From the NCBI GenBank assembly GCA_965655095.1, contig OZ296649.1, forward strand, positions 88,474,001-88,538,000: a DNA stretch of 64,000 bases, in the 5' to 3' direction. The notes beneath the pieces are model-generated. The model ran no database searches. It was not told the origin of the DNA and saw only the letters and a list, made by a program, of their open reading frames with translations. This stretch comes from Haplodiscus bocki. Lineage: Eukaryota. Of the stretch, positions 24,143 through 25,768 are shown one piece after another; position 1 is the first letter of the stretch, and each line of letters opens with the position of its first letter. Position numbers and translations under genes: made by a program.

Positions 24143-25768
24143 ATGGCAACATTGAGAAATAAAATAAAGTTAGCAGCAGTTTCAAGGGAAACACCCGAAA
24201 GTACTAGAAGTGGTAGAGCACCGAATGTTCTAGATCCAGAACTTACTCAGGAGTATATCTCTCAAGTCTCCGAGGAGATCGAAGGGAGAGTTACTAAAAA
24301 ACTCTCAAAAGAGTTCAGTAAAACAGAATCACGGATCTTGGGAGCCTTGTCGAAACTTGACGAGTTTCTCTTGAACCCACAAGTTCGGACTTGTTCCGTA
24401 GTTGCCCCCGGAACCTCTAGGAGCAACAATTTAGAGAACCAGGGAACCAATGAGGATCGTCCCTCAGACGATCCTGGGCCTGAAGTGGAGATTTCTTCCC
24501 CCATCTCAGGGGCAGAAACAAATCCTCACATGGTGACAGGAGTTACAAGAGAGTTTCGTCAACACCCTCACATGGCTATGGAAACCCAAGAAGAGACTCC
24601 CTACTGCTCCACTAGTACTTCATCAGGGAAACAGAAGAAGGCGCGCTCCACAAGTCAACCTCAATTTCGCAGTGAGAATACCCCTGCGACACTAGAGGCA
24701 GACCAGATTTTGTTGGCCCTTCAGCAATTGGCAACGAACAGTAATTCAGCCAATTTCAACAACAACATCAGCCGAATTTCGAAACTGCCGAAATCTCTAA
24801 CAACAACAATGCCCACGTTTGATGGAAAATCAGAGAAATTCGAGCTGTTTGAAGACTTATTCCAAACGAGCTTGAAAATTCACAACCAGCTGACAGAAGA
24901 AGACAAGATTAACTACTTCCACTCTCTCATGCGTGGTGATGCTTTGCAGACTTTCAAAAACATCACCAGCCCCAACAGAGAAACTCTAGTAGAAATCCTG
25001 AATGTGTTCCGTAGGAAATACGTGAAACCTCAGTCAATGGCTACGGCAAAACACAAATTTCAACGACTAGTCTTCAATCCAACAAACCGGAAGTTAATCG
25101 ATTTTCTTGACGAACTCCAGAAATTGGCCAAAGACGCATTCGGAGTTGCTGCACAAGCGATAATAGAACAATTCATCTATGCCAAAATGCCTCCCCACCT
25201 GAAGAAATCAATTAACCAGGCGCATTTGGAGAACGGCACATATGAACAGATTGTGTCACACCTTGAAAGGGAGTTGGAACTAAATGGTTTGGAAGCCCCA
25301 GATGAGATGCAAATCAATACTGTGATGCAACAAGACACACGACAAAACTCTGAAAAGCCCAAACCAACGTGCCACCATTGCAAAAAGCCAGGCCACTATC
25401 GAAATCAATGCCGTCAACTCAAACGAGGAAAAGACCAAGTCCAAAACAATACAGATAGTGCGACAAATAATAAAAATAGCAATGGTAGTGCCCAAACAAA
25501 CTCTAACCCCAATCAAAAAGAAACAGTTGCAATCAAGGCGAACAATGCAAATAATCAAAGAGACAAGAAAACTAGACCTGTTTTCCCACCCTGTGAGACA
25601 TGTGGCAGAACGAACCACTCCACAGAGAGATGCTACCTTGGAGCAAACGCAGCGAACAGACCGCCGCCCAGAAATAGACGGCCGGAAGGACAAAACCAAG
25701 CCCAACAGAGAAATACTCAAAATGGCTCAGACGGGAATGTCCAAGCTGCAGCCCAACCTTTAAACTAA
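24143..25768 (+). CDS. gag: Gag (541 aa), starting inside the 5' LTR, with two CCHC zinc knuckles
   Basis: Capsid-like core (PTFDGKSE...KINYFHSLMRGDAL) and knuckles CHHCKKPGHYRNQC and CETCGRTNHSTERC. Confidence 0.95.
   Translation: MATLRNKIKLAAVSRETPESTRSGRAPNVLDPELTQEYISQVSEEIEGRVTKKLSKEFSKTESRILGALSKLDEFLLNPQVRTCSVVAPGTSRSNNLENQGTNEDRPSDDPGPEVEISSPISGAETNPHMVTGVTREFRQHPHMAMETQEETPYCSTSTSSGKQKKARSTSQPQFRSENTPATLEADQILLALQQLATNSNSANFNNNISRISKLPKSLTTTMPTFDGKSEKFELFEDLFQTSLKIHNQLTEEDKINYFHSLMRGDALQTFKNITSPNRETLVEILNVFRRKYVKPQSMATAKHKFQRLVFNPTNRKLIDFLDELQKLAKDAFGVAAQAIIEQFIYAKMPPHLKKSINQAHLENGTYEQIVSHLERELELNGLEAPDEMQINTVMQQDTRQNSEKPKPTCHHCKKPGHYRNQCRQLKRGKDQVQNNTDSATNNKNSNGSAQTNSNPNQKETVAIKANNANNQRDKKTRPVFPPCETCGRTNHSTERCYLGANAANRPPPRNRRPEGQNQAQQRNTQNGSDGNVQAAAQPLN
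24531..24543 (+). promoter_or_regulatory. Primer-binding site TGGTGACAGGAGT (within the gag reading frame)
   Basis: TGG lies immediately 3' of the LTR's terminal CA. It resembles tRNA-Trp (TGGTGAC) or tRNA-Leu (TGGTGTCAGGAGT) type PBSs; the primer is not resolved. Confidence 0.75.

Follow-up and report, generated by a model that had tools for sequence, protein, structure and literature searches.

LTR ends are usually taken as fixed landmarks of retrotransposons, and movement of this boundary has seldom been caught in the act. According to the established model of how LTR elements are reverse transcribed, U5 comprises the sequence from R up to whichever primer site is used, and retroviral vectors with two primer sites (PBS) reportedly show frequent dual initiation, judging from the title of a 2004 paper by Voronin and Pathak. 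In Ty1, GAG overlaps the LTR by only about a dozen codons. Available sections of one account place the PBS of this Saccharomyces cerevisiae element (Pseudoviridae) inside the GAG reading frame and describe that of Ty3 (Metaviridae) as bipartite and outside GAG (PMC4974528). According to excerpts of a second account, the Ty1 PBS can be altered at nt 335-347, immediately after the 334-bp LTR, by changes that are silent in GAG, and this places the start of GAG at or within the LTR (PMC5454406). Moreover, part of a report on the LTR1 vector indicates that the choice of the sequence copied into DNA depends on where priming occurs (PMC5542766).

Here we analyze a family of LTR retrotransposons with a member in a 64,000-nt stretch of the Haplodiscus bocki genome (hereafter, the window). 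The reading that we favor, and consider quite probable as a whole, is that in this Ty3/gypsy family gag spans the LTR end and a tRNA-Leu primer site, that duplications of this junction recur, and that the LTR end has repeatedly been moved to a downstream duplicate, likely via priming at the PBS of that duplicate.

A gag gene that begins inside the LTR

The element in the window is a young LTR retrotransposon of 15.6 kb (Table 1). Its placement in Ty3/gypsy follows from the PR-RT-RNase H-IN order of pol, direct TG...CA LTRs with a 5-bp TSD, a PBS complementary to a tRNA and a polypurine tract (PPT) before the 3′ LTR; the integrase of the window pol does not lie upstream of RT, as it would in Ty1/copia, and the best PDB match of pol is Ty3-G Gag-Pol (E 8e-35). 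The pol domains are Asp protease (41-148, below cut-off), RVT_1 (452-617), RT_RNaseH (682-816), Integrase_H2C2 (1013-1064) and rve (1089-1182). The tRNA-Leu primer, the 5-bp TSD and two CCHC knuckles are reminiscent of the Mag clade. Expression of pol may involve a -1 frameshift from gag at the slippery-type heptamer.

Table 1. Positions of the element's features and of three solo LTRs in the window
Feature	Position	Strand	Evidence or remark
Left TSD GTTGC	22715..22719	+	Identical 5-mer at 38342-38346
5′ LTR, TG...CA, 1811 bp	22720..24530	+	99.8% identity with 3′ LTR, 4 mismatches
Candidate TATA box, ~195 nt 5′ of gag ATG	23949..23956	+	Putative promoter, from sequence
Two AATAAA hexamers, candidate poly(A) signal	24082..24096	+	Putative, from sequence
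gag ORF, 541 aa; DUF1759, weak Retrotrans_gag and zf-CCHC	24143..25768	+	ORF list, domain search
gag codons 1-129 within LTR	24143..24530	+	ORF and LTR limits
End motif of cassette 1, CCTCACA; actual LTR end	24524..24530	+	3′ LTR stops here, then TSD
PBS, 13 nt complementary to host tRNA-Leu(CAG) 3′ end with CCA; M-V-T-G in gag	24531..24543	+	
42-nt junction duplicate (PBS, 24 nt, CTCACA)	24531..24572	+	PBS-to-EEIPY distance steps 17/59/101/143
Cassette 2, end motif (24566-24572) and decayed PBS (6/12)	24566..24584	+	Unused as LTR end
TTTAAAC slippery-type heptamer at gag stop	25759..25765	+	pol frame -1, open upstream
pol, PR-RT-RNase H-IN order	26113..29670	+	In-frame stop 29668-29670 in integrase core
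Extra ORF crossing PPT, 26 codons into U3 of 3′ LTR	35888..36607	+	ORF list, dN/dS
Polypurine tract	36517..36530	+	
3′ LTR, 1811 bp	36531..38341	+	Ends at cassette 1
Solo LTR, no relic, ends at first cassette	4079-5826	-	TSD CCATG
Solo LTR, 24-nt relic unit 40021-40044	40021-41793	-	TSD GTATC
Solo LTR, 24-nt relic unit 46229-46252	44475-46252	+	TSD GGGTA

Several observations concern the remainder of this copy and its surroundings. Its integrase carries an in-frame stop despite the near identity of its LTRs. A tandem repeat of 38 bp lies in approximately 6 kb of extra internal DNA (30600-36500), together with long ORFs on the antisense strand (31757-32623 and 33475-34203, the latter with a Cys/His motif), for which no Pfam family passes. 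After pol, where errantivirus-type elements carry env, six ORFs scanned in the 31.7-36.6 kb region gave no Pfam hit above a curated cut-off, and a search for phage DNA gave no match. A tandem satellite at 52840-54800 (units of ~116-128 bp) has no relation to the LTR-end duplication described below.

As the sequence-only reading had proposed, the first 129 gag codons lie in the LTR: from the ATG, 388 nt, or 129 codons plus one base, precede the LTR end, and the reading frame then continues over this end and the PBS. We sampled the first 100 of 2567 exact matches to a 21-nt LTR anchor, all 100 on one contig. Among 59 non-redundant LTRs with the modal spacing, codons 1-78 have a dN/dS of 0.11 in the gag frame; four other frames give 1.2-2.0, and the antisense frame that shares third positions gives 0.18. 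Between lineages, the same codons vary at 69 of 78 third positions, 18 first positions and 12 second positions. Codons 86-113 are looser (dN/dS 0.51). The LTR-encoded part of gag is real and under purifying selection; it matches no Pfam family and has no Atlas match above 0.77. TATA-like motifs occur upstream of the ATG in 45 of 76 sampled LTRs, and AATAAA or ATTAAA occurs 25-110 nt 5′ of it in 39 of 76. If these candidate signals mark the limits of R and U5, then U5 would be almost wholly gag-coding.

A second conserved ORF, with a C-x2-C motif, lies at the other junction and stops at the same codon in 53 sampled LTRs. Its dN/dS is 0.37 versus 1.1-1.2 in other frames (3′ LTR starts, L092-L191). 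Both LTR junctions of the element are coding.

A search for a host tRNA complementary to the primer site, which the sequence-only reading had suggested, led to genomic tRNA-Leu(CAG): the 12-13 nt after the LTR end pair with its 3′ end, CCA included. An 8-nt match between gag and the tRNA T-arm is, by our estimate, expected by chance and was set aside, and the RNA fold of the junction is unremarkable (z -0.91). Elsewhere in the genome, tRNA-Leu 3′ halves with an encoded CCA (L063-L067 and L069, ~1480-1525) resemble reverse-transcribed tRNA fragments, and a long tandem array of tRNA-Leu-like 3′ ends with a unit of ~424 bp extends from 161.07 Mb of G000:C1 (L070). The pattern for such 3′ ends has 893 matches genome-wide, and most of the matches listed fall in this array.

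Junction duplications and the gag reading frame

In the window, CCTCACA directly followed by TGG occurs exactly twice, at 24524 and 24566, with both copies in the gag frame and 42 nt apart. The two in-frame copies had been recognized before, although the second had been placed at ~24576-24585, about 10 nt too high. This second cassette has a dead PBS, matching at 6 of 12 bases. CCTCAC[AG] is present at +42 in 30 of the 30 closest copies, with TGG following in only 16. Elsewhere in the genome the junction, meaning the LTR end plus the PBS, is tandemly duplicated in units of 21, 24, 27, 36 or 42 nt, and all units seen cover the end motif and the start of the PBS. A 42-nt series is evident from the distance between the PBS and the EEIPY motif at 28 junctions: 17 (4 junctions), 59 (17), 101 (2), 143 (1), 53 (2), 16 (1) and 58 (1). 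The 24-nt pattern followed by TGG has 53 matches versus none in a reversed control, and among 30 of these 53 a PBS of at least 11/12 follows the last end motif in all 30. Neither the +42 nor the 24-nt pattern is due to chance.

The solo LTRs at 40021 and 44475 do contain the PBS relics (CA/TA-TGGTGAC, 24 nt before the LTR end) that the sequence-only reading ascribed to them. Their being in frame applies to the gag register only, since the solo at 44475 has an upstream stop and that at 40021 a 14-nt deletion near the ATG.

LTR ends were fixed for 51 of the 100 sampled LTRs, comprising 31 solos by their TSDs and 20 LTRs by 5′/3′ comparison (17 of the 20 with a TSD of at least 4/5); the remaining 49 are 5′ partners or else copies that are damaged or lack a partner. 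The ends that recur lie 154 (11 LTRs), 172 (16), 181 (2) and 196 (11) nt from the anchor, all in a single register. Aligned in this way, the 3′ ends differ recurrently by multiples of three and stop, according to the TSDs, at different units. The gag register is kept in 44 of the 51 fixed ends, and the seven exceptions are all singletons. By comparison, only 13 of 59 recurrent length variants in non-coding LTR intervals are multiples of three (6/6 recurrent coding classes versus 13/59; Fisher p=0.0003). The earlier proposal that the gag frame constrains the units is supported by this control.

PBS relics are found at 17 of the 51 fixed ends, or 18 if a decayed one judged by eye is counted, and they invariably precede the end by 24 or 48 nt. 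In a tree built without the end region, and leaving out 25 rows that are partners, duplicates or lack an end, the relic-bearing LTRs form one side of a branch with 100/99 support (26 of 75 LTRs). The nearest neighbours of the 24-nt relic clade carry GACAG 24 nt upstream of the GACAG of the PBS.

Pattern searches agree with the preference for multiples of three. Among the first 100 of 220 matches to a search for spacings of 19-31 nt, a hand count gave 24 nt in 85, 27 nt in 10, 26 nt in two, and 21, 23 and 25 nt in one each. Ninety-six are thus multiples of three, and three of the four others are not of the family; the 25- and 26-nt matches and one 27-nt match lack family markers. A search for 23-38 nt returned 45 matches, 26 of them in frame. 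Ten of the 19 out-of-frame matches lie, by coordinate, in the tRNA-like array, and the five that were fetched out of the other nine are not of the family. No recurrent out-of-frame family unit appeared in the searches run, although out-of-frame direct repeats do span the junction: a rough count across seven junctions, which includes repeats left by earlier duplications, gave 20 of 32 in frame and 12 of 32 out. Selection on gag is likely the filter for in-frame units. Part of the bias may nonetheless be mutational, since the direct repeats at the junction are often codon-phased. In intact gag proteins from other assemblies we observed units of 9 and 12 residues in which the PBS is whole (117 of 120 parsed), and we therefore conducted targeted searches for switched ends; the 27- and 36-nt patterns, being derived from intact proteins, are biased to in-frame units.

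The units could alternatively be read as tiny introns whose removal regenerates the junction, and each of them does offer a donor-like GT (G/GTGAC). However, they are only 21-42 nt long, a unit begun at that GT ends in ...CATG rather than AG, which makes seamless removal impossible, and all recurrent sizes are in frame, as an excised intron would not need to be. We find this explanation hardly credible.

Unswitched, switched and inherited LTR ends

Three states can be distinguished: extra units only behind the 5′ LTR, units inside the LTR with the TSD at the last unit, and decayed inherited relics. Eight elements are unswitched, with extra units behind the 5′ LTR only and a 3′ LTR that ends at the first unit (L213/214, L221/222, L241/250, L242/251, L094/095, L110/111, L122/121 and L139/140). 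Sixteen insertions are switched, with the TSD at the last unit; four carry units in both LTRs and have a perfect TSD, and the other 12 are single LTRs (TSD of at least 4/5). By unit size, the switched insertions are the pair L210/211, with two perfect PBS copies in both LTRs, and solos L212, L215, L216, L227, L243 and L244 for 27 nt; L217 and L240 for 36 nt; and pairs L283/291, L285/292 and L286/293 with solos L277, L278, L280 and L282 for 42 nt. The searches for 27-, 36- and 42-nt switches also found a further 3′ LTR, L229, outside the TSD-checked set. L219, L223, L245 and L246 were assigned to neither state, and the 3′ LTRs of L219 and L223 and the 5′ start of L249 were not found. These 8 and 16 cases are targeted finds and not a census, so they do not yield a rate.

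One could suppose that gag has a disordered linker in which the units are just ordinary peptide repeats in tandem, with the LTR end always at one homologous place. The linker is weakly constrained, as its dN/dS indicates, and in most copies the end is constant when measured from the internal side, namely from the PBS, the 42-nt unit and EEIPY. Moreover, the terminal 42-nt unit is never a TSD-bounded end: the flank behind it is non-internal in one match, which has no TSD, and internal in 293, in a test whose pattern detects only about half of random flanks. Nevertheless, among elements that share a unit structure, some end at the first unit and others at the last (L221/222 versus L210/211; L094/095 versus L283/291), so these paired states already contradict one fixed end, and the end motif and PBS start are spanned by every unit seen. 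This explanation is therefore highly improbable. An earlier conclusion of ours that 42-nt units never switch, drawn from the terminal unit only, was overturned by a wider pattern search, whose 11 matches comprise seven switched insertions, one without a TSD, one internal and two unrelated. The claim of the sequence-only reading that the U5 boundary moved by duplication and switching thus holds, by TSDs and LTR pairs, for units of 24, 27, 36 and 42 nt, but it does not extend to the window's own second cassette.

A different possibility is that units enter the LTR after insertion, whether by gene conversion or by recombination in the host. If a downstream CCTCACA recombined with the end of the 3′ LTR, the resulting solo LTR would have additional units and still a correct TSD, and conversion could copy units into 3′ LTRs. 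The prevalence of single LTRs, at 12 of the 16 TSD-checked switched insertions, is in keeping with this route. Two elements also fit it: in L248/L249 the 3′ LTR contains three 24-nt units and the 5′ LTR two, and L225/L226 has a matching TSD around LTRs of two different subtypes, which indicates that conversion or recombination also acts. Yet four complete elements have units in both LTRs, the 24-nt clade contains many 5′/3′ pairs, and five separate insertions (L212, L215, L223, L243 and L244) have one decayed 27-nt relic in common, so that a moved end must have been inherited through later transposition. As a general account, post-insertion entry is consequently unlikely: the state is passed on by transposition, even though solo LTRs with extra units could also be obtained by recombination at the downstream end motif and some may be of that origin. 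Tandem elements with a common LTR, preceded by a PPT and followed by a PBS, were also observed (L074/L075, L134, L163, L257/L258, L260 and L255/L256).

We therefore return to priming at a duplicated PBS. The pathway starts from a gag that begins 388 nt into the LTR and evolves under purifying selection. Duplication of the junction in units of 21-42 nt, the products of which are observed, occurs between short direct repeats (GACAG for 24 nt, ACAA/ACAGA for 27 nt and GGAGAAAC for 36 nt), probably by slippage of reverse transcriptase or a misaligned switch of template close to the PBS. Since the units form part of gag, multiples of three alone would persist, as the controls suggest. Each unit ends in CCTCACA directly before TGG, and a duplicate of this form before an intact PBS would add to the existing ones another valid start and another valid CA end. 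Minus strong-stop DNA primed at the downstream PBS, a step that we infer from the products, would then place the upstream unit or units in both LTRs, which would end in a valid CA. The upstream PBS is cut to ~9 nt by a 24-nt unit, so the end would shift at once, whereas 27-42-nt units leave both PBS whole, and for these either outcome is found. For example, one sub-lineage signature is common to the switched L210/211 and the unswitched L221/222. The unused PBS finally decays, either upstream as a U5 relic or downstream as the HPH-MAM of the window.

The sequence-only reading also saw in this process a mechanism for growth of the LTR into coding sequence, and this is not supported. The internal region of all four complete switched elements retains at its start a PBS, the 42-nt unit and the dead PBS; what the LTR gains is thus duplicated sequence (21-66 nt), at no expense to gag. 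Nor does junction duplication account for the 388-nt overlap, because the first ~120 gag codons lack any PBS relic that is both shared and in register; a single weak match recurs there, and it is out of register. It is possible, but doubtful, that the coding U5 was built by a junction-duplication ratchet in which an older, larger primer-site jump into gag put an N-terminal domain of ~120 codons in the LTR. If so, the switched-to-unswitched ratio for each unit size would be an in vivo readout of the competition between two tRNA primer sites.

Comparison with known systems

A PBS within GAG is already known from Ty1 and dual priming from engineered vectors; the present feature is of small scale and has good support at the level of DNA. 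Its significance is limited by the size of the effect, which is tens of bases. Nevertheless, one family displays the states before, just after and long after a move of the LTR end, and such moves took place several times, involving units of four sizes and LTRs of different backgrounds. The outcome fits the prediction of standard reverse transcription that the primer site in use defines the end of U5. Primer-site competition and LTR-end drift thereby become countable from genomes alone, and PBS-like motifs within LTRs and gag can mislead boundary calls in annotation. Our literature search, which lacked most subscription papers and repeat databases and is thus weak evidence of absence, found no description of an LTR end that relocates repeatedly in nature through in-frame duplication of the junction, and the portions available of PMC3601003, PMC12471100, PMC12853362 and PMC7845639 do not mention junction duplication.

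The family resembles Ty3 in its PR-RT-RH-IN order, TG...CA LTRs, 5-bp TSD, PBS and PPT, and differs from it in a gag that takes up the last 388 nt of a 1.8-kb LTR and in a second ORF that extends over the PPT into U3. It shares with Ty1, as far as the accessible Ty1 text extends, a PBS inside gag. Unlike this family, however, Ty1 is copia-type and uses a tRNA-iMet primer, and the overlap here reaches 129 codons; a series of junction duplications is present in this family and absent from the sections of the two Ty1 accounts at hand (PMC4974528, PMC5454406). Two-PBS retroviral vectors, to the extent that partial sources describe them, are like this family in placing two primer sites on one RNA. 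Those vectors are laboratory constructs, whereas here the two-PBS state is natural, has arisen repeatedly and lies within a gene, and the genome retains copies of its outcomes.
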